Source: Mytilus edulis
Lineage: Eukaryota
NCBI RefSeq assembly: GCF_963676685.1
Contig: NC_092351.1
Span: forward strand, 37,944,001-38,008,000
DNA: 64,000 nucleotides
Direction of reading: 5' to 3'
The notes beneath the pieces are model-generated. The model did no database searches. It was not told the origin of the DNA and was given only the letters and a program-made list of their open reading frames with translations. Within the stretch, counting starts at the first letter, position 1; every line of letters begins with the position of its first letter. The translations under genes were made by a program, and so were the position numbers. Below are positions 37,601-60,285 of the stretch, one piece after another.

Positions 37601-40600
37601 TCCAGCTCCAGACCTCAATTAAACTGATTGAAAGATTATATCTTCATCATATGAATATTAGGCACAATCCTTCCCGTGAGGGGTTTAGTATCATACCATC
37701 ATAACATATATGATGTGTTTAATTCCGATGCAAAGACCCTATAAGTGAATCAATATTAACGCCAAAATATGCAATCTTTAATGACCTGACAACAGTATCG
37801 TAACTATATCCCTTCTTAATAAGGTCTATTTAAAGGTTTTGTTAGCTAACTGAGGTGATTATTGACATTTTTGTGCTTTATAAAGAATATTTCTATAAAA
37901 TATTAGTTGTGAAATACCTGAACGTATAAGAAGTCTGCATGTTGAGCTATATTTACGAATGATGTCCTCATACCGATGATAAAATTTAGTAAATGATTTG
38001 ACTAGTTTGTGATATCGAAAACCCTGGTGTAATCATTTTTCAGTAATACATAAATTTCTCTGGTTAAAATCTAAAACATTGTTACATACACGAGCGAATC
38101 GTACAAATTGAGATATATAAACACCGTAAGATGGTGACAAGGGAACGTCACCATCTAAAAATGGATAATTAACGATAGGAAATGAGAAATCATCTCTTTT
38201 ATCATAAATTTTAGTATTAATCTTTCCGTTAATGATATAGATATCAAGATCGAGGAAAGGGCAGTGGTCATTGTTAGTATTAGCTTTATTTAAAGTAAGT
38301 TCAACATGATAAATTTCTTAAGTGTACATACGGAAGTCGTCCTTATTGAAAGCCAAAATATCACTATGTATAAGTCACTAGTCCAAGCTGTCAAGCATTT
38401 TGTATTTCATCTCTCAATAATATTTAAATAACAAAACAGGAATATGGCTAAATGTGTTGAAATCTGTCATGCTCTTTTTGTTTTTAATCCCACACTAATT
38501 TTAGAAGTTCGTGTCCTAACTGTTGGCCTCAACGGTAAGTGATGAACGGTAAAACATAATTATATTGTTATGATAACAAAATGAGAATTTGATACCTTTC
38601 AATAGTCACTCTCGTTATTAAATTTTGATTAAAGTTATCAACCGACCAAAGGCTCGTCTTTTAATATATTGAATTTAACTCTAGAAGTTATCAAGAATTA
38701 AAACTCGTTATGAAACTTATATTTTCAGAATTACACTACACGAGGAAGGACTTAAAACTACGGAGTCACAGAAAAATAGTGCGTTGAACAGGTACATGAT
38801 ATTTATGCCTATAATGTTCAATAAATTAAATTATGTCGATTTATGGCTGTCTAAGAATAATAATTTGAACATGTTTATTTATTTTATTCTTAAAAATGTC
38901 CATTTCGATTATCGGTCATAGATGTGCAACTTTAATTGAGAAGCAGCAAGAGGAAATGGTTTAGGTTTTAAATTCTTTTAAGCGAACAAAATAAAGTATC
39001 TGGATTCACTGATTTGAAAGGATATGATTTAGTGTTTCTACGAATGCTTGTAAAACAGTCGGATGATATAAAGATGATATTAGAAACTCCCAAATATAAG
39101 ATAAAATAACAAGTTTTGAAAAAAACCCCGAAAAGACGAAAGAACAAAAAAGTTCATAAAACACTACATAGAACATTGAAGAGAAACAAGAACACCAACA
39201 AAGACTGAGAGTGATTATTGTGCTCAATATTAAGAAATTAAAATCAAGTGTAATGCATACACTAGTAATTTTTGGAGCCCTTTACAGCTTGCTGCTCGGT
39301 GTGAGCCAAGGCTCTGTTTTACAGGCCGTACCTTGACCTATAATGGTTTACTTTATAAATTGTTACTTGGATGAACAGTTGTCTCGTTGTCACTCATACC
39401 ACATATTCATAAAACTAATGACGTATCAAATTATCTGAATACGTCGATTTATACATTACTTTTGTCTTAAAAATACTTATATCCATTAGTTATGATACGT
39501 TAATTGTTCACGTCCACGATATTTGGACTCTTGTGTGTTTCAGTAGTTGTTTCATTGGCAATCATACCACACCTCCTTATTTTCATAAGGCTTTACAAAA
39601 CGTATCCACCATAAAATCGGTATCAAATATTCATACGATTGATTATTCGTTGTTATAAACCACTTGACAATCTTATAAACCAGGTATTTGTCATTCCCAC
39701 GTTTAATATTCATGACTAGTTTAGGTGTTGAGTCTTGGCGTGATTTAAGAAAAAGTTATTTTTAATCAGGCTGTATGGTTTGTGTATGATAGTCTCTTTA
39801 CACATCATTTTAACCTTACACGATATGATAAATCCATATTTTAAATATTAAAGTTGGTTTAATTGTAAATTATCAAAACATACATCCCATGCAAATTGTT
39901 TTAAAGAGTAAAAGAAATTGAGACACAACTGAATTCGACAGACAAAGAGAAGAATGCAGCCTTAAAAAGGTAATGTTTCCCAGTCATTTCGAATTTAGAA
40001 GAGTTTCACAATTGGTTGCAAGATAAATTTTTTGGAATTCCAACGTTTCAATATAGGCATCAGGAAATGTTTTATAACCGTTATGATTTATTTTGTCAGA
40101 AACATTTGAAAATGCTTTTCCCCCGATTTTTACACAAACAGCTTTGTTTATTTAAAGTTTGACTGGTTTTAAAAAGGCAACAGTAGTATACCGCTGTTTG
40201 AAAGTAATATATCGATCAAGAGAAAATAAATCCGGGTTACAAACTAAAACTGGTATAAACACTTCAACTTTAAGAGGAAAACAATGTAACAACAGAAACA
40301 CTGATAACAACTGTCATTTTCCGGATTTGGTTCATTGTATTTTCAATTATTTTTTGCCAGCAAGAAGAGAGATTTGAATTGTTGGCCAGAATTGCAGTGT
40401 ACATCGTCGACTGTAATATTTGTCATGTGATTAATATTTCTTGTCAGTTCTTTATAGGCACTTTACCAAATTGTCTGTCATTAATAGATGACGAAAACAA
40501 AAACTTTATATTGAATTAGGTTTAGAAACTCTGGAGAATAGACGTAATAAACATAAGCTTATACTATTCTATAAAATATTAAATGGGATGACACCTGCAT

Positions 40601-43600: not shown

Positions 43601-46600
43601 AGCTTAATTTTGACTAATATATATAGCCATACTCAACTTTAAATAGGAAATATTTTAAAGTAATTTCAAAAAGAGAATATTTGTACAATCTGGCCAAAAA
43701 AATTTCTTTCTGACATATAACATAGGGCACATGTGTTGTTTATCTATTTTTGTGAGTAAGTGAAAACAATTTGAAAGCACTGTTGAACTTAACATGATAC
43801 TAGTAGATCAGCATTTGTGTCACGAGAATAAATTTTCAGCCATTTATGGATGTAAAGAATAAGGGATAGTTAAAAAATATATCGGTCATTTATTTAAAAA
43901 AAAAACAAAAAAAAAACGAAATCTACCTGTATTTGTTATTGATTGGAGACATTTTGTTCATCAGATCTGTTTATCAAGTTGATGATTACCTTTCAAAATA
44001 AACAAAGAGTTGTTATGTTGTATCTTAACGGGTTCAAAGTAACAGCATAAGTACTGAACTCTTAAACACATCAAACGAAATTCACACACTTTACGTATTA
44101 TACTTAAAGCGTATACTTTGTCTAACTCTGCCCCCTAATACACCACTGAAGAGACAATAATTGTCGAAATGCGTATATGTTCAATAAAAGTACTACCAAT
44201 AGGTCAATACCTCTGATGTTTGAATGTAAGTTACAAAGCTAGGGTATCAACCGCCCAGTAACCAGAAATTCGTTACTGACATAATTGTCTGGTTGAGTTG
44301 TTTTGTTTTCAAGTTTTAGAATTTATTTTAAAGCAAGAGTTATAATATCATATCCAATCAATCCATTAACAGAGTCAAAGATGTTGAAACGAAATTGAAA
44401 GCTAGTGAATCAGCCAAAGAAGATGTTTTGAAAAAGTATGTAACTAATTAAAGATAGTTAGAGTGAACAATTGTTCACAGCTGTTTTGAACACCAAATGA
44501 CCGAAAGTTGAAAATTGTTTTGCATCCCTATTAATTAACAAATATATATTAAATGTAATTGTATAACACTTACCGGAATGAATGGTTTCGAGAAAATAAA
44601 TCCAAAAACGTATCACCATGCTTATGTTAACCTCCTTTTCATATGATCATAGTACAGGCTGTTTTTGACCGACTTTGTATTTGGTTGCCACCTTTTGTTT
44701 CATGTGGAACAGGATCTGTTTACCCTTCTGGAGCTACTGCGATCACCTCCAGTTTTTTGTGGGGTTCGTGTTGCTTAGTCTTTAGTTTTCTATGGTGTGT
44801 CTTCTGTACTATTATTTGTCTTTTTTATTTTTAGCGTTGTAAATTTATTTTCGATGTATGAGTTTGACTGTCCCTCTGGTATCTTTCGTCCATCTGTGAT
44901 ATCTTTTACTCATAGACAGATACACCATGTGCTTATGTGAGAGTCATGTAAACGCTGTTTCTTTTTGGGGGAAATCAGTTGTTTTATATATATTTAATTC
45001 TTATAATTATTGACGTTTGTCCATTAACAGATTAAAAGATATCGAACAGAAATTAAAAGCTACAGACTCTGACAAAGAGAATGCTTTAAAAAGGTATGTA
45101 GTTAAAGATCATTCAAACGAACACTGCTTTACATATCTCGAGCTTTGAGTGTTTCTGATGAAGTTAAACCCAGAAAAGCGCTTCGGATGCATCTAATATA
45201 TATACTGTAAACCAACTTATTTTCGCAAATACTTTTTTTTCGCGTTTAGTCCTTTCTAATACACTTCGCGGCGATTTAATTTCACGATTATATAATTTAT
45301 TTGATGTAGTTAGATAGGAAAAGATCAAAGTTATACATATTCGCGACTATTTAAATTCGCGTTATTTTTCTCCTCGCGAAAGTCGCGAAATTAAGTCTCT
45401 CGCGAAAATTAGTTGGTTTACAGTATATGTCGGACGTCCATGAAATTTAATATAATAAGTATCATATCAAATCTTTAAGATCCACTAAGATCATGACAAC
45501 TAACGTTTCTAACATATGATATGCTCTTTGGCAATATAATTCATACACAAAAATAATTTTTAAAGATATAATGTCAACATTAATTTTGTCATTATAACAG
45601 TTAAAAAAATGCATCGGTGCTTGTCATGTAAATGCGGTTCTTTCTTTTAAGTAATGGTTTGTTTAATATATATTATTTTAGTATTCGATGTCAACTTAAC
45701 ATGTTTTATAAAATTTTGTACTTACGAAATTGGCTGTACCGAGTCTGGAATATTGTTTTCCATCCGTTCGATGTGTTTAAGCTTTTGCTTTTGCCATTTA
45801 GTAAGGGACTTTCCGATTTGAATAGTATCTTACGATTCGGTATTTTTGATATTTTACTTTTCATATTACATATATATTAGAGTGATATTAATGTTTATAT
45901 TTGTTCTGACTTAATTAACAATATACTTCTTATACTTTTGTTTTTGATAGAATAAAAGAATGTGAGGCAAAACTGAATTCTATCGAAAAAGAGAAGACTT
46001 TAGCGTTAAAAAGGTAATTAAACTTCCAAAGTATGTGTATATTAGATAATAAAAAGAGTGACACATACACCAAAAGCGGGACAAGTTGATCGACAACATA
46101 TTTGTTTTAGATTAGTGAATTGATATATCAACTGACAACCGGCATTACAATGGCTAGTATGGCTACAAATTGTGCAAACGTACGTGTTATTGTGTACTCA
46201 TTTGATGCAGATGTCCAACAAAAACTTCTTCAAGGACAAAAAGCAAAACTCATTTACGAAGTTCTCTAATTCTATGGACGACTTCAAACTTGATTATTGT
46301 CAACTACTACCCTTTTCTCCGCCGTATCATCCCTCTAACTGATTAAATGGGGTTTACAGTTTTTATATTGATAAATTTACTCAATGTTATGGAGTTTTTA
46401 GATCTTTAGATACAAGAGAATACGTAGTAATCTAATTTGTGAGCTTACTATTTGCTTCGTTATTCCTATTCTGGATGGTGAATTTTTAACTGAGCGTAGA
46501 TTTGAAAAAAAAAGTAAAAACACAAAAATACTGAACTCCGAGGAAAATTCAAAAAGGAAAGTCCAAAATCAAAAGGCAAAATCCAAAATCAAACGAATGG

Positions 46601-52600: not shown

Positions 52601-54793
52601 CAACTTTTGTTCCTCTATGATTTATATTCTATCAGAATTAAGTATTCATATTTTTTTCTTTTGTAGGAAATTTATAATATATGTTTGGAGGATATAGAAG
52701 AACAGTTATCAGGGCATAAAAAACTTGTACATGTATGTTATCCGTATTCTTATTTCTTCATCGTATAAAAATTATTTATGATCGTCTGTCAAACAACCAC
52801 AAACTAAGAGGTTTTTATTTGACTATTTGTGTAAATAGTTCAACTTCATCAACATATATTCATCAAGAAATAGATATTGTTGTCAATTGAACTCTTTTTA
52901 ACGTCTTGAGCGTGCACTACTAACTTCCGAATTATGATGAAAACATATATTACAGACATAGAAGAATAGTCCGTAGAGAAACAGAAAGTTCAACGGAGCT
53001 TTAAAACGATCCCAGCTAACGTAAAATATAATTTGAAAAATTGGGTCCGTGAAACACAGAATAAAGCAATATTAATTGCGCTTACTACTTTAGAAATAAG
53101 TAATAACCTGGTGATACATTAACCTTATTATTTGTCAGTGCAAATTTGTGCATCTCGTGTATAGCGTGATTGTCTTCTGTTATTGGTGTTATTGGCTTTA
53201 ACGGCTTAAAATTGTTTTTTAGGGTTTCAGTGATGACGAAATTGAACCATTCTTAAAAACAGCAAAAGAATCAGTGAAAACAAATGCCGCAAATTATATT
53301 CCTCTTCTATCCAGAGTAAGTTGGTCTAAAATAATGCAATGTGTGCACTGAATATTATTCATTGAACAGATAATTCAAAATTATATATAATTCGTTTGCA
53401 TCTGTCATTATTTATGTTTTTTCTTTGCTCGTGTTTAACATAACATGTGTTTACCTTTTCCATATTAAGACAGTCATTTTTCTTGTTGTGGAAAGCCGGG
53501 GAATAATAATAGATCCAAAGAGTTTCGGATGGAGTACAAAAAAGATTGAAAAGCATTGTCAGTTACGATAAGAGCCGAATGCATCTTTTCACTGTCGATA
53601 CCTTACAGTTAACAGACCAACCAGTTAAACCACATGGTTATCGAGGCCACTTCAAATAGTAAAATAATATTATCAATCAAGATTCACTTGCCCGATATTA
53701 AAGAATTACACATATAGGTTATTGTGCTGATCGAAGTGTCGACATAAATACCAATAATGTAGTATCATTTTTATAAATTTCCTTTTTACAAAACTTCGAA
53801 TTTTTCGAAAAACTAAGGATTTTCGTATCCCAGCCATAGATTACCTAAGCCGTATTTGACACAACGTTATGGAATTTTAGATCCTCAATGCTTTTCAACT
53901 TTGTACTTGTTTGGCTTTATGAATATTTTGATATGAGCGTCACTGATGAGTCTTATGTAGACGAATCGTGCGTCTGGCATACTAAATTATAATCCTAGTA
54001 CCTTTGATAACTAATTATAGACGTATGCAAATCTAGATTTAGAGGTTGATAATGACTTCAAGTCAAAGATTTTGTGACTAGAACGACAAGTTTAGTCCTC
54101 TTCAAAGTCTAGAAATGTATCATTACTTTACAGCTTATAGTTTTTTTTATCAGTACTGGTGTTAAAGAATCATGAACAGCTAGGAATACTATATATTACC
54201 TTTTTCAATAAATACAATCAATAAGAAATTCTGTAAAATGTTCATGCAAAGAAAAGCCATTAATTGCATAACTATTGAATGATGATAAGCTTAAATAGAG
54301 TTTACCAGCACATATCTTTCACTTTAGGTATATACGAGGCAAGCTATAGAAGCTCTTGTGGGTTTCTGATTTTTTAAATGAACAAATTTTTTAGAGAGAA
54401 ATAAGAAGATTGATTTGAGTTTAATGTATATTAAAAAAATCTACTCGTTCTCAAGTACTTTTGATCTGTAATTCATTATATTTCTGTCTTACTTTTCAGA
54501 AAATAATTAGCAGTACATCAACCTGTAAAATAGTAGCTAAATATAAAGATTTCAGTTTCAAATATATAGAAAATTGTGTGAAAATTTGTTACTTCGCAGC
54601 AGTTCAAAACCCGCCTATGGTGATAGATTTTGAACCTGGACAAATGTTTGATAAACAATCATATAGAGAATATACCAGATCAGGCACCGTTGTGGAGTAT
54701 TTAGTCTGGCCAGTCTTATATTTACATAAAGGAGGTCCGATTCTATCTAAAGGTGTTGTGCAACCAAAAGAGGAAAATAATAGTAATAAGTAG
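34608..54793 (+). CDS. Coiled-coil protein with a C-terminal MIEAP (mitochondria-eating protein/SPATA18-like) domain; 5' end uncertain
   Basis: Exons 34608-34667, 34839-34907, 36133-36195, 38505-38534, 38729-38791, 39907-39969, 41989-42051, 43081-43143, 43471-43533, 44373-44435, 45031-45093, 45951-46013, 47297-47359, 48333-48395, 49023-49085, 51931-52138, 52667-52732, 53223-53315 and 54500-54793, all GT-AG and in frame. Motifs: LRDNNPAITDLNDPNRPMKLGDQFSELYENEWTDAF and VQNPPM..FDKQSYREYTRSG..YLVWPVLYLHKGGPILSKGVVQ. Confidence 0.85.
37113..38036 (-). mobile_element. Penelope-like retroelement-derived fragment (degenerate RT C-terminal region plus 3' sequence); related pieces at 59850-60285 (+) and 63935-64000
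   Basis: The minus strand at 38036-37730 translates approximately HQGFRYHKLVKSFTKFYHRYEDIIRKYSSTCRLLIRSGISQ. The Penelope-like assignment is from memory of the motif. Confidence 0.55.
40495..41578 (+). mobile_element. 5'-truncated LINE (CR1/L2-like) 3' fragment in an intron; ORF remnant to 41175 plus 3' UTR
   Basis: KLYIELGLETLENRRNKHKLILFYKILNG..RTSSYFSSLIPSTIRLWNSLP..HCQLRNNASNL..CVNCNHPVEDNKHFFFICPKY. AATAAA at ~41561. Confidence 0.85.
44141..44180 (+). ncRNA. Degenerate minimal hammerhead ribozyme (350-bp repeat family)
   Basis: CACCA-CTGAAGA-GACAATAATTGTC-GAAA-TGCGTA-TA, followed by decayed family sequence (AGGGTATCAACCGCCCAGTA). The 3' arm of stem I is mutated. Confidence 0.5.
45148..45190 (+). 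ncRNA. Degenerate minimal hammerhead-like motif (third family)
   Basis: GTGTTT-CTGATGA-AGTTAAACCCA-GAAA-AGCGCT-TC-GGATGC. Palindromic stem III; stem II is poorly paired. Confidence 0.45.
45205..45423. mobile_element. TA-flanked MITE (Tc1/mariner-type signature) with TTCGCG repeats
   Basis: TA|CTGTAAACCAACT...AGTTGGTTTACAG|TA. Confidence 0.8.
50110..51227 (+). mobile_element. HINE/Helentron-type non-autonomous element with (GGC)n and ~145-bp internal tandem repeats
   Basis: Same termini and body as 14894-15836, with one extra internal repeat. Inserted in a T-rich site. Confidence 0.82.
53735..54012 (+). repeat. Partial retrozyme-like unit with a mutated hammerhead (53937-53980)
   Basis: GCGTCA-CTGATGA-GTCTTATGTAGAC-GAAT-CGTGCG-TC-TGGCAT. 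Homologous to 58516-58893. Confidence 0.7.
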
Positions 54794-55349: not shown

Positions 55350-57290
55350 GTTAAAAATACATATTACATTTTGTACATCAAATATATATTAAATAATATC
55401 ACTTAATCACTTAATATGACTACTCATATGTTTTCTAATAGTTGCTAAAACATTACTTTTAATTTTTAAACATACTCTTCTATTGAACTCATTGAGAAAA
55501 ATTGAGAAAACATTGACATTTTTTGTCTTTTGATCAGATATGCAGTAGGCTTTGTAAATTGAAAAACCCACAATTATAAAAAAAAATAATAATAGTGAAA
55601 GTCAAAATATTCTTCTTCAGAAGTTTTATATCCAAAAACTAAGTGTCTTAGTTTTATCTGAAAAGTAATTTTACTGTTCTTTAAAACTTCATTTCTTTTA
55701 TTCCAAAAAAGTTTTAAATACGGACACAGTATAAAGAAGTGATCATAGTCTTCTTCTAGTGTACAAAGATTACAAGAATTATTGTTTACAATTTTCAACC
55801 TGCATAAAAGTTTCTTTGTAGGTAGAATACGTTGTAGTTATTTCCATCTAAAAATTCTATTTACTGTTAAATATCTGAAAAAAAAATGTATATAAATAGT
55901 TTTGATATAACACATCATCTATATCAAATATAAGCAGTCATTTGTTTGGTCCAATAGCTGGTTCAATATTTTTATTTATCAGAGACTTATATAAAAGTTT
56001 ATCTGTTAATGCTTTTAATTTTATTGGTAAACCATCCAATATAAATTGGTTTCTTTTTATATTAACAATACTTTTTATAGAATTTTCCGATTTTTAAATT
56101 GCTGCCCAGTCTTTTTAAAAAGATTTCTTTACTAAATTAATTTTAGCTATCCAGTTTGATTTATTTTTTAGTTTATTTAAAAGGTTGTCTTGAGAAATAC
56201 AGCCTTTTTCATCTATGATATCATTTATGTAAATAAGATCGCTTTTAATCCAATTTAATAAAAAAAACTATAGCTTTATTTTCAAATTTAATAAATTTAT
56301 TGTTCCATAATATTTGTTTTCTTATATCTGTAAATGTTTCTGGTTGTTTTGTTAGACCTCCACCAGTTAATTTCCAACATTTGATAATATCTTTGTAAAA
56401 ATCTGGGATGTTTTCAATGCTTCCGTCTGTCTTATCCCCACTGTTTGTTTGAAACACTAATCAGTTTGACCCAAAATTATAAAAAAAAGTGTTGAGGTAT
56501 AACTGTCCACCCTCCTTCACAATCATTTACTAGTCTTTTTACCCACATAGCTTTCGAAGCAGTGAAATAACTTCTTATATCTATCATATCCAGTCCCCCC
56601 TTTTCATATGGATCAATGATTGAATTTCTTTTTATTTCATCTGGTTTATTATCCAAAACAAGTTTACAACAACGTGTTTCTATTTCTTTTAAATATATCT
56701 CTGGAACTCTGCAAGCAGACCCACAAAAGTAAAAATGGGCACAATTAATGTTTTAATTATCATTTTTTTTCTAAAAATAGTAACCCCTCTGTTTTCTTTC
56801 TGTTTAATTTCAGTCCGGAATAAGAACCAACAATTTCAATTTAATTCATAGCTACTTGAACATCATATTTAGAACAACAAAACATAACGTAGTATCATCT
56901 GCCATAATTCCCACAGATTAAAAAAATAATAACGCAGATAAAGGACACCCTTGACGTATACCTCTTGTGTTTTAAAAGACCTCAGATATCCAACCGTTAT
57001 TCATTACACATGTTTTAATATCGCTATATAAAGTCTTAACCCATCTTATAAAAGATTCATTTAATCCAAAATGTTTTAAAACTGAAAACATAAAATTCCA
57101 TTCTAGAGAGTCAAACACTTTAGAAAAACCAACAAAGACTACAGCCCCCTCAATTATGTATAAGTCAGTGAAATTAATAATATCTTGTATCTGTCTAAAT
57201 TAAAACCAATAAATCTGTTTTTAACATATCCAGTCTGATCTTCTTTAATAAGTTTTGGTAAGATTTTTTTCAATCGTTGTGCTATATTTG
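55350..57290 (-). pseudogene. Degraded L1/Tx1-like LINE ORF2 (RT domain to C-terminal zinc finger)
   Basis: Minus-strand motifs EDQTGYVKNRFIG, DSLEWNFMF, GIRQGCPLSA (~56965), MADDTT (~56905), GGLDMID and CNLCTLEEDYDHFFILC. Many stops and frameshifts. Confidence 0.85.
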
Positions 57291-57480
57291 AAATAAATAT
57301 TTATTTATGTTGTTAAAAAAACACCTAAATAATTCAATATATTACTTGTCGTCCGTTGATGTTTACAAAAATTATGCTACTGTAGAAACAATCTGACATA
57401 ATATTGAAACCCCGAATTATGATAAGAATAATATTTCTTTATTTGAACGAAGTAATAAAATGAACGGTACCAATTTTCTT

Positions 57481-57524
57481 GCACCAAATGCGCATTTCGA
57501 CAATACATGTCTCTTCAGTGATGC
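57481..57524 (-). ncRNA. Minimal type I hammerhead ribozyme (AUU cleavage triplet)
   Basis: Identical to 57831-57874 except for C>U at the cleavage position. Confidence 0.8.
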
Positions 57525-57830
57525 TCGTGGCCCAAATATTTGAAATCCAAAGCTTATATAAAAGATGAAGAGCTATAATCCAAAAGGTCCAAAAAGTATA
57601 GCCAAATCCGTGAAAGGAATCAGAGCTTTGGATCAGGGAGATACATTCCTAAATTTATGATAATTTCTAATATTTTGTAACAGCTATTTTAATTACACCA
57701 AAAAATCCGTATTTTCATGCCAGTACCGAAGTACTGGCTACTGGGCTGGTGATACCCTCGGGGACTAATAGTCCACCAGCAGAGGCATCGACCCAGTGGT
57801 AGTAATGAAATTAACGGTACCAATTTTCTT

Positions 57831-57874
57831 GCACCAGATGCGCATTTCGACAATACATGTCTCTTCAGTGATGC
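57831..57874 (-). ncRNA. Minimal type I hammerhead ribozyme with an intact core
   Basis: GCAUCA-CUGAAGA-GACA(UGUAU)UGUC-GAAA-UGCGCA-UC-UGGUGC: 6-bp stem I, 4-bp stem II, palindromic stem III, AUC cleavage triplet. Confidence 0.85.
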
Positions 57875-57889
57875 TCGTAACATGTAACA

Positions 57890-58011
57890 TGCTCTTCAAC
57901 TTTGTACTTGTTTGGCTTTATACATATTTTGATATGAGCATCACGGATGAGTCTCATGTAGACGAAAAGCGCGTCTGGCGTACTACATTGTAATCCTGGT
58001 ACCTTTGATAA
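57890..58011 (+). repeat. Partial unit of the second retrozyme-like family with a mutated hammerhead (57938-57981)
   Basis: GCATCA-CGGATGA-GTCTCATGTAGAC-GAAA-AGCGCG-TC-TGGCGT. Confidence 0.65.
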
Positions 58012-58515
58012 GTATTAACCGTTGACATAAAGCTATAATATTAATCTATGAGGCCTTAAATATATAAAGAGCCATCAGTAATTATCTTCCATACCTTATA
58101 GTAAAATGAAAAGAACATTTTAAGCAATATATAAGAAGTATAGAAAAAAAACAAATTACATAGAAATACAAAACAACTTCTGATTCATGCAAAGGATATA
58201 TAAAGGGGAAAACTTTTTGTGTGTTGACCATGGTAATTCAAAGCAGCCACAACAAAAAGCTAGGATGAAAGTCCGTTGATGTTTACAAAAATTAAAGAAG
58301 AATTTTATCTGAACACAAAAATTACCAAGGAACGACAATTTGATTGCTAAAATGGGTGTTTTTTACAGGATTAATTGATATCGTCGAAAAACTAAAAGAT
58401 GAGTTTGATTCAGACAAAAAAACATAACCCCCTTGAAGTTTAAGGGTTGCTCCCTAAGATAGATGAGTTCTTTCCTTTTAAAGCACATGTGCAAATTTTA
58501 ATAATTTGTCACGTT

Positions 58516-58893
58516 TTGATAACTTTTTACACCGATGGGTCGATCCCCACTGCTGGTGGACGTTTCGTCCCCGAGGGTATCACCAGCCCAGTAGTCATGT
58601 TCAGCACTTTGGTGTTGACATGAATATCAATTATGTGCATAATGGTCATTTTTATTAATTTCCTGTTTACAAAACTTTCAAGTTTTCAAAAAAATATGGA
58701 TTTTCTTATCCCAGGAATAGATTACCGTAGCCAAATATATTTGGCACAACTTTTAGAAATTTCGGGTCCTTAATGCTCTTCAACTTTGTACTTGTTTGGC
58801 TTTATAACTATTATGATCTGAGCATTACTGATGAGTCTTATGTAGACGAAACGCGCGTCTGGCGTATTAAATTATAATCCTGGTACCTTTGAT
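58516..58893 (+). mobile_element. Retrozyme-like monomer (~375 bp), second family
   Basis: Bounded by TTTGATA. Shares GGGTCGAT..CTGCTGGTGGAC..GTCCCCGAGGGTATCACCAGCCCAGTAG with the 350-bp family and contains a hammerhead. Confidence 0.7.
58822..58865 (+). ncRNA. Minimal type I hammerhead ribozyme with an intact catalytic core
   Basis: GCAUUA-CUGAUGA-GUC(UUAUGUA)GAC-GAAA-CGCGCG-UC-UGGCGU. GUC triplet; stem I weakened. Confidence 0.78.
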
Positions 58894-59849
58894 ACATTGT
58901 AACTATTTGACGTTCCAATTTTGAAATAAACTGGAATAGTTTCTAACGTTTATCATAAAAATAGAAATAGATAAGAAAACATGCTAGCTATAACTGTTAC
59001 AATTTTATTACAAACTAGTTTGGCGTATAATAACAAATAATGTCATATTAACACCATACTATTAGTAAACAACGAGAATCAACAGAGTATTATACTGGTG
59101 TGGTGCCTTCCGCACAGCAGATGCGATAACGAAATTAAGAAACGGGATATAAGCAGATATCGAAAAAAGGAATAACAAAAATATCGAACTCCAAGACAAG
59201 TTCAAAAAGGTTATTTAAAAAAAACCCCTGACAAAATCAAACTCTAATCAATCAAAGAAACAAGTGAAAAACAACTATCGCATTCCTATTGTTGGTTAAA
59301 CCTGGTTTTATAGCTAGCGAAACCCTGTACTTAATTGCACGACAGTTTTTTTCATAGTTCTATTATATTAAGATACTGGACAAACAAACCAACAGACATT
59401 ACACATCTATATGAAATATTATACATATTTATTACCAAAGTAATTTCCTTTTGCATTTCGATACTTTTATTATTGCACAAACCATGTGTTCTTTGACCGT
59501 CCATGACTAGCTTTCAGTAACTGCAAGTACTCTCAAAGCATATTTTCGTGTTAATTTGACTAGCAATGCATTTGTGTTGTTTAATGTTTATTTGAAAGTG
59601 TTATATCTCGTCTCACAATTTTTATATATACCACCTTTGATGTTTAGTGTTTGGTTAAATACATTTTTACTTCTGTTCTCTTACTATGAATAAACAAAAA
59701 ATATTTGTGTCTTATGAGTCGAAAAATGTATTCTTGGGCTGTCCTTGACGTTGAAATACATCTTGGGATGTGTTTTAGTTCATTTAAGTCTTTGATGCAT
59801 TTTATTAATTGTTTTGGGCTTTTAACTACCTTGTAGATTTTGTGTTTTT

Positions 59850-60285
59850 AGCAACGTATCAGATTTTGACGAAAGCAATCTATATGTTGTACTGAAAAAT
59901 TATTACACCAGGGTTTAACAAACTAGTCAAAACTTTCACTTAATTTCATCATCGGTTTGAGGACATCATTCGTAAATATAAATCAACATACAGACATCTT
60001 ATACGTTTAGGTATTTCACATCCAATCTTTTATGGTAATATTTTTTACAAAGCACAAAAATGTCGGCAAAAGGTACTAAACCTTTAAACAGACTTTAAAA
60101 TTAAGAAGGGATATAGCTACATGTACGATACTGTTGTCAGATTATTTAAGATGGCATATTTTGGCTTTAATATTGATTCACTTATAAAGGGAATTTGCAT
60201 CGGAAATAAGCACATTTATTCGATAAATCAGTTGTTGGCATGATACGGGTAATGTTCTTCTCATTTAAGTTTGTTACATCGGACT
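59850..60285 (+). mobile_element. Penelope-like retroelement-derived fragment, inverted relative to 37500-38036
   Basis: KLLHQGF..NKLVKTFT*FHHRFEDIIRKYKSTYRHLIRLGISHPIFYGNIFYKAQK. Confidence 0.55.

Follow-up and report, generated by a model that had tools for sequence, protein, structure and literature searches.

A family-A retrozyme insertion in Mytilus edulis shares a hairpin and an end register with Naiad Penelope-like elements

Two hammerhead ribozymes lie 350 nt apart on the minus strand of a 64,000-nt stretch of the Mytilus edulis genome (the window), which raises the question of whether this locus is a source of small RNA or a copy left behind by a mobilizing enzyme. We consider it probable (roughly 0.7) that the locus is a 5′-truncated, slightly decayed and probably silent insertion of a retrozyme family, here called family A, and that this family is likely copied by a Naiad reverse transcriptase (RT) recognizing a hairpin at 57740–57797.

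The whole insertion occupies 57451–57878 on the minus strand. Read from 57878 to 57451, it comprises 42 nt of a preceding unit, 5′-truncated at monomer position 309, followed by one full monomer and a 36-nt 3′ tail. Both hammerheads are held in a 78-nt direct repeat (57451–57528 and 57801–57878; 96% identity), and their cores start at 57868 and 57518. The original prediction of two type I hammerheads on the minus strand, with a spacing of 350 nt, CUGAAGA/GAAA cores and a palindromic stem III, was borne out for both ribozymes. Each ribozyme runs from stem II (GACA/UGUC with a UGUAU loop) through GAAA and the palindrome AUGCGCAU to stem I (GCAUCA/UGGUGC), and the CUGANGA and GAAA core, stems I–III and an NUH site (AUC or AUU) are those of a type I hammerhead. 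The predicted cleavage positions are after 57837 (AUC) and after 57487 (AUU), which delimit a 350-nt monomer from 57836 to 57487. The upstream ribozyme (57828–57878), cut at 57837, has lost the 5′ arm of its distal stem I by truncation and in its predicted fold pairs with the flanking sequence and is thereby misfolded. The downstream ribozyme (57478–57528) carries the rare AUU site at 57487. The Penelope-type tail (57451–57486) is the fixed 3′ end of the family and stops just before the position of the hairpin in a next unit. Within the monomer, the bulged hairpin of 58 nt (57740–57797, minus strand), a putative RT binding and start signal that is common to the 5′ end of Naiad Penelope-like elements (PLEs), is followed by a second element on the same strand (57716–57738) composed of a UUCG hairpin (57719–57738) and an AUG (57716–57718) that aligns with the start codon of Naiad N3. 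Four features had been missed previously: the 36-nt tail that reaches 57451, the AUU cut site, the loss of part of the upstream ribozyme through truncation at 57878, and the two pieces of the sister family (57889–58019 and 58516–58894).

The ribozymes had also been described as minimal forms that cleave as dimers, which is not supported. Two base pairs closing a GCGC loop can form in helix III, and judged from the sequence the ribozymes therefore differ from the minimal dimer-dependent hammerheads of PLEs, in which helix III is absent or has one pair. A two-pair helix III is the invertebrate type, which cleaves as a monomer (PMC7229834, PMC7761336). In PMC7229834, a cloned mussel genomic repeat with a single ribozyme cleaves co-transcriptionally (kobs ~0.1/min), and the dimer requirement is tied to amphibian ribozymes. 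The duplex of the 8-nt palindrome was calculated at −12.4 kcal/mol, so that a dimer is still possible. When folding was compared with shuffled sequences, the isolated ribozyme was no better (z 0.2) and the monomer was modestly structured (z −2.3). U17 slows hammerhead cleavage. The AUU site still conforms to the NUH rule (PMC3884650), and no passage on the cleavage rate of AUU versus AUC was found in the literature searched.

Standard searches gave little at this locus. Rfam returned no match at the gathering score over the whole window, the A ribozymes and the hairpin included; at E ≤10 over 57400–58950, the sole Hammerhead_1 match was the ribozyme of a neighboring sister-family B copy (26.2 bits; cut-off 34). 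Tandem Repeats Finder did not report the 350-nt unit. A 33-nt core pattern of family A gave 4,017 matches in the mussel's own 1.37-Gb genome and 0 in the reversed control, and the hammerhead pattern is therefore not due to chance. A shorter pattern through the AUC site gave 4,921 matches; among 4,955 counted copies, the cut site was AUC in these 4,921 and AUU in 34 (0.7%). The sister family B gave 6,701 exact core matches with a unit of ~355 nt, and its majority sequence aligns to that of A across the whole monomer. Tandem arrays exist at a spacing of 350–351 nt. Units within an array differed by a median of 0% (28 pairs) versus 3.7% between loci (1,298 pairs), as would result if a single template had been copied repeatedly or units had been duplicated locally, and all 12 multi-unit loci shared at least one variant. 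The units are non-coding tandem repeats within 150–450 nt, with one ribozyme each, a GC content below 50% and no LTR, as in non-LTR retrozymes. The published M. galloprovincialis Rtz 375 (PMC4918200 Additional file 11) matches the B/C sister family by eye, and through this homology and the alignment of A to B the earlier assignment to non-LTR retrozymes of the mussel type stands. The locus alone is ordinary, since the mussel retrozyme family to which it belongs is already published and has thousands of copies.

To describe the ends of the insertions, 123 of 156 loci were kept after overlapping, duplicate and array-cut loci and one earlier-examined set had been dropped. Among the A pieces with at least 85% identity, from loci chosen for carrying a ribozyme, 96 of 102 ended +27 to +42 past the cut site, mostly at +33/34, and the 5′ ends were spread over the monomer. 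Family-B ends fell near +38 to +45. Measured from the start of the hairpin, the ends of contexts that stop lay within −4 to +1 in 22/25 cases for N3, 14/18 for N2, 10/12 for N1, 89/102 for A and 25/39 for B, where the contexts are distinct sequences and not strictly independent loci. A tail together with 5′ truncation is the pattern of PLEs (PMC8557442), and the tail of an anole PLE has been explained by internal initiation of reverse transcription (PMC11167929). Retrozymes were also found inside older retrozyme copies at ~5 of the 123 loci (L101, L103, L144, L151 and L044), which suggests a target preference.

A protein search identified the three intact Naiad families of this genome, N1–N3, which have 56–64% mutual identity and show the N-terminal GIY-YIG, CxC and DKA. 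Many open frames of ~1,000 codons occur across the three families, and N3 has many identical intact copies. The units of N1–N3 contained no canonical hammerhead core. The A locus gave no Naiad protein match and is thus not an autonomous Naiad PLE, which would have an ORF with an N-terminal GIY-YIG and an RT. A profile built from A and B matched, at monomer positions 29–98, one of 30 GIY-YIG loci (of 150 matches), and this locus was an intact Naiad frame; the profile also matched just before the first AUG in all three Naiad families. N3 was the closest of the three, matching monomer positions 14–132 (tail, hairpin and AUG) with an E value of 7.5e-21 and the hairpin at 55/64 nt. Over 14 sequences, 95.5% of the hairpin cells were paired (33–53% in slid controls) and 8/22 pairs changed on both sides (1/500 shuffles), in an alignment whose rows were hand-picked (9/20 low-GC metagenome hits), from which N1 was left out because of a 21-nt insert, and whose invariant core partly reflects the search itself, since this core had served to find 9 of the 14 rows. 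RNAalifold returned the same hairpin fold. Eight published consensuses in the supplement of PMC8557442 (Naiad_CGi, Sglo, Pmar, Mcor, Mgal, 1_Skow, 1_Pfla and Cmel) have the hairpin at their start or close to it, and the start of N1 resembles that of Naiad_Mgal. The A family and the Naiads thus have a common sequence and structure at the insertion end, and the fixed tail and truncation occur in the same register in a genome with intact helper ORFs, as expected of a Naiad dependant.

Among 29 hairpin hits in metagenome contigs, 4 loci were beside Naiad ORFs, 5 loci were 81–89 nt after a hammerhead core and 9 were GC-rich chance hits. The metagenome loci L259, L266, L270, L271 and L273 belong to a different retrozyme family, with another hammerhead (~343-nt spacing in L259) and the same hairpin. 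Assignment of the hairpin to HDV-like or twister ribozymes was rejected by eye against the consensus of these ribozymes. The 3′ UTR of Naiad N2 holds a decayed B-type body with a dead ribozyme (L246 397–643 and 4952–5198; L244, L245, L247 and L248), and this body was probably captured as an insertion and is now carried along with the Naiad.

On the basis of these sequence comparisons, the Naiad RT would probably bind this hairpin in the retrozyme RNA and begin to copy next to it. Tandem copies elsewhere would be transcribed, as the presence of family RNA suggests, and their hammerheads would excise 350-nt monomers that a host ligase would close into circles, as described for mussel retrozymes (PMC7229834). 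The Naiad protein would then nick AT-rich DNA, bind the hairpin and start the cDNA 1–4 nt before it, ~33 nt past the cut; we infer this step from the end positions and homology, and a precedent is described in PMC11167929. Backward copying through the junction over a variable length would account for the fixed 3′ tails, the irregular 5′ ends and the arrays of similar units, and the copy at 57451–57878 would have run 1.2 turns and mutated since. The template would be a circle or an uncut multimer, because copying would begin 33 nt into the monomer and proceed backward across the ribozyme; we favor the circle.

The RNA data were four runs from two studies, of which 6–18% of each was read, from individuals other than that of the genome, and circles and tandem transcripts look alike in such short reads. 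The depth was ~100–400 in the unit versus ~0–1.5 on the unique flanks. Compared with the majority sequence of 52 monomers, the A copy at 57451–57878 has 10 differences in 427 sites (2.3%; the median monomer, 1.7%). Most of its variants are rare among the 52 monomers, and those at 57685, 57634, 57631 and 57533 are private. The reads carried the family alleles at 57685 (280/280, 106/106, 270/273 and 43/43 in the four runs; first mate on the plus strand) and at 57533 (481/496 in one run). Assuming the usual library strandedness, a bias toward the ribozyme-sense strand was clear in two of the four runs, weak in one and absent in one; no accumulation of reads at the cut site was recorded in these runs. 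The retrozyme family is expressed as RNA on the ribozyme strand, and the 57451–57878 copy, which showed no sign of expression in these other individuals, is probably silent. At the cut nucleotide 57487, the family letter was found in 97/238 (X22) and 238/309 (X21) reads with the first mate on the plus strand and in 125/128 and 142/147 reads, respectively, on the other strand, and X23 and X24 had no such gap; this could be due to the survival of slowly cleaving variants in RNA, to an artefact at the junction or to the way reads were assigned between the two copies.

The proposal that transcription through the locus could release a 350-nt monomer found no support in these data, given the flank depth, the family alleles in the reads and the weakening of both ribozymes. 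It is unlikely that 57451–57878 is itself an active source in which read-through transcription yields a monomer that becomes a circle: both catalytic cores are intact, AUU lies within the NUH rule (PMC3884650), and the downstream ribozyme and the circle junction can fold stems I and II, but the nearly empty flanks, the family alleles of the reads and the predicted misfolding of an upstream ribozyme without its distal stem I arm speak against it. A different question is which RNA the Naiad enzyme would copy. That an uncut linear multimer is the template and the circle a stable by-product is a tentative, rather unlikely alternative. Ribozyme-dead RNA of an anole PLE inserts equally well and uncut RNA is its main substrate (PMC11167929), and a linear multimer explains the fixed tail equally well; by contrast, mussel retrozyme RNA is mostly circular (PMC7229834), array units are often identical with common variants, and the AUC site is kept in nearly all counted copies (4,921/4,955).

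Animal retrozymes in general have been proposed to be mobilized by, or derived from, hammerhead-bearing PLEs of the Penelope/Neptune type with a C-terminal endonuclease, and we regard such a helper as very doubtful for the present family. PLEs of this kind, with intact frames and a minimal hammerhead, do occur in the genome, one young A copy (L157) lies head-to-head with one of them, and Xenopus retrozymes resemble pLTRs (preprint 10.64898/2026.07.22.740005). Against this, the pLTRs and ORF starts at 20 loci had no similarity to A or B except for adjacent insertions, the L157 junction is a single case, and among the 30 GIY-YIG loci, most of which did not cover a 5′ end, the hairpin occurred in the Naiad locus only. 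At L157 (5370–7762; G000:C1 near 41.707 Mb), the young A copy directly adjoins, at a TA-rich site, 31 nt of inverted Neptune-type pLTR and a 5′-truncated copy of the same PLE, possibly by co-insertion or a template switch. L161, L162, L164 and L168 hold Neptune-type PLEs of one family, whose frames are intact or nearly so and whose pLTR contains a hammerhead with the variant core CCGAUGA. The Neptune-type PLE beside L107 was rejected as a parent of A and B, with which it has no sequence in common. Spread as a DNA satellite by unequal crossing-over, with the hairpin a passive relic of a Naiad ancestor, would agree with the long arrays and their high internal identity; it is highly improbable in view of the dispersed, 5′-truncated state and single end position of most copies and of the hairpin pairs kept across families. 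Lying immediately ahead of the Naiad AUG, the hairpin could instead have a role in translation or transcription.

A 10-nt linker (57879–57888, no strand assigned) forms the head-to-head junction of the A copy with a family-B piece, B1 (57889–58019, plus strand), which is 5′-truncated, has a mutated core (CGGAUGA) and a tail, and is 6.9% diverged. B1 is probably older than the A copy because its divergence is 6.9% versus 2.3%, and the same difference (Fisher p 0.023) disfavors twin priming in one joint event. A second family-B copy of about one monomer (58516–58894, plus strand; 7.2% diverged) has its hairpin in the 58540–58600 region and its hammerhead at 58822–58865. The idea that the sequence between them (58020–58515) is a mobile insert which interrupted a single B element was rejected; this sequence is mostly unique, and each B piece has its own tail. 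An exact 24-nt duplication (57351–57374 and 58271–58294, 920 nt apart) flanks the A/B junction. Head-to-head junctions numbered 7 in 123 loci, and 3 of the 7 read as nested insertions. At L076 (1117–1342), A and B are head-to-head with tails outward and both are ~97% identical to their own majorities, and this locus is the most promising candidate for two-template priming that starts from both strands of the DNA. Elsewhere in the window are an old A-like remnant with a decayed hammerhead and hairpin (44142–44339, plus strand), a further B copy (53736–54017, plus strand; 7.1% diverged), and decayed C-terminal fragments of PLE proteins at 37913–38362 (minus strand; 38–44% to Naiad N1–N3) and 59853–60230 (plus strand; by eye like a related family). 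A broken LINE reverse-transcriptase fragment with a weak RVT_1 match (E 0.049) lies at ~56000–57290 on the minus strand, and we take it to be L1/Tx1-like by its motifs.

The literature searched contains no report of mussel retrozymes sharing a hairpin or an end register with Naiads, although closed supplements and subscription papers could hold one, and the words “hairpin” and “stem-loop” are absent from the main text of PMC8557442. The published papers, in the parts consulted, leave open the enzyme that mobilizes animal retrozymes and its recognition signal. With Naiad N3 named as a helper, a signal of 58 nt and a start nucleotide that can be predicted, retrozyme mobilization becomes open to a direct bench test; together these would also provide Naiads with their first cis-acting RNA element in the literature searched, as well as a small tag for reverse-transcribing circular RNA. 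There are roughly even odds for a broader reading in which mussel retrozymes are viroid-like circles parasitizing hammerhead-free Naiads: a Naiad 5′ hairpin and start-codon remnant would have been fused to a ribozyme, the RT would dock on the hairpin and roll round the circle from a fixed start, and the hairpin would be an undescribed motif across the published Naiads of several invertebrates that sets where these telomerase-related enzymes begin.

Among known systems, the non-LTR retrozymes of M. galloprovincialis are similar in being tandem and dispersed repeats of 350–390 nt in two type I families with thousands of copies, no ORF and a low GC content, and the same hairpin is present in the published Rtz 375 (PMC4918200). 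PMC7229834 describes two related ribozyme families, 350–390-bp repeats and abundant circles in that species; it differs from the present analysis in naming PLEs as candidates only, and its available text gives no fixed end or recognition signal. Vertebrate retrozymes are described as non-autonomous PLE derivatives that depend on PLEs (preprint 10.64898/2026.07.22.740005); that preprint derives the Xenopus retrozymes from hammerhead-bearing pLTRs, and the part of it consulted mentions neither mussels nor tails and draws no link to Naiads. The Anolis Poseidon PLE PAc (PMC11167929) also has an internal RT start downstream of a hammerhead, which explains its tail, and a protein-binding region near the ORF start; PAc, likened here by description and not by sequence, is autonomous and has a C-terminal endonuclease and a protein-assisted ribozyme. 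The Naiad PLEs (PMC8557442) share with the retrozyme the 5′ hairpin and AUG region, the register of the 3′ end, 5′ truncation, a tail of 30–40 nt and inverted neighbors, and they differ from it in that they encode an EN-RT protein of ~1,000 aa and are without canonical hammerheads, whereas the retrozyme has a ribozyme and no ORF.
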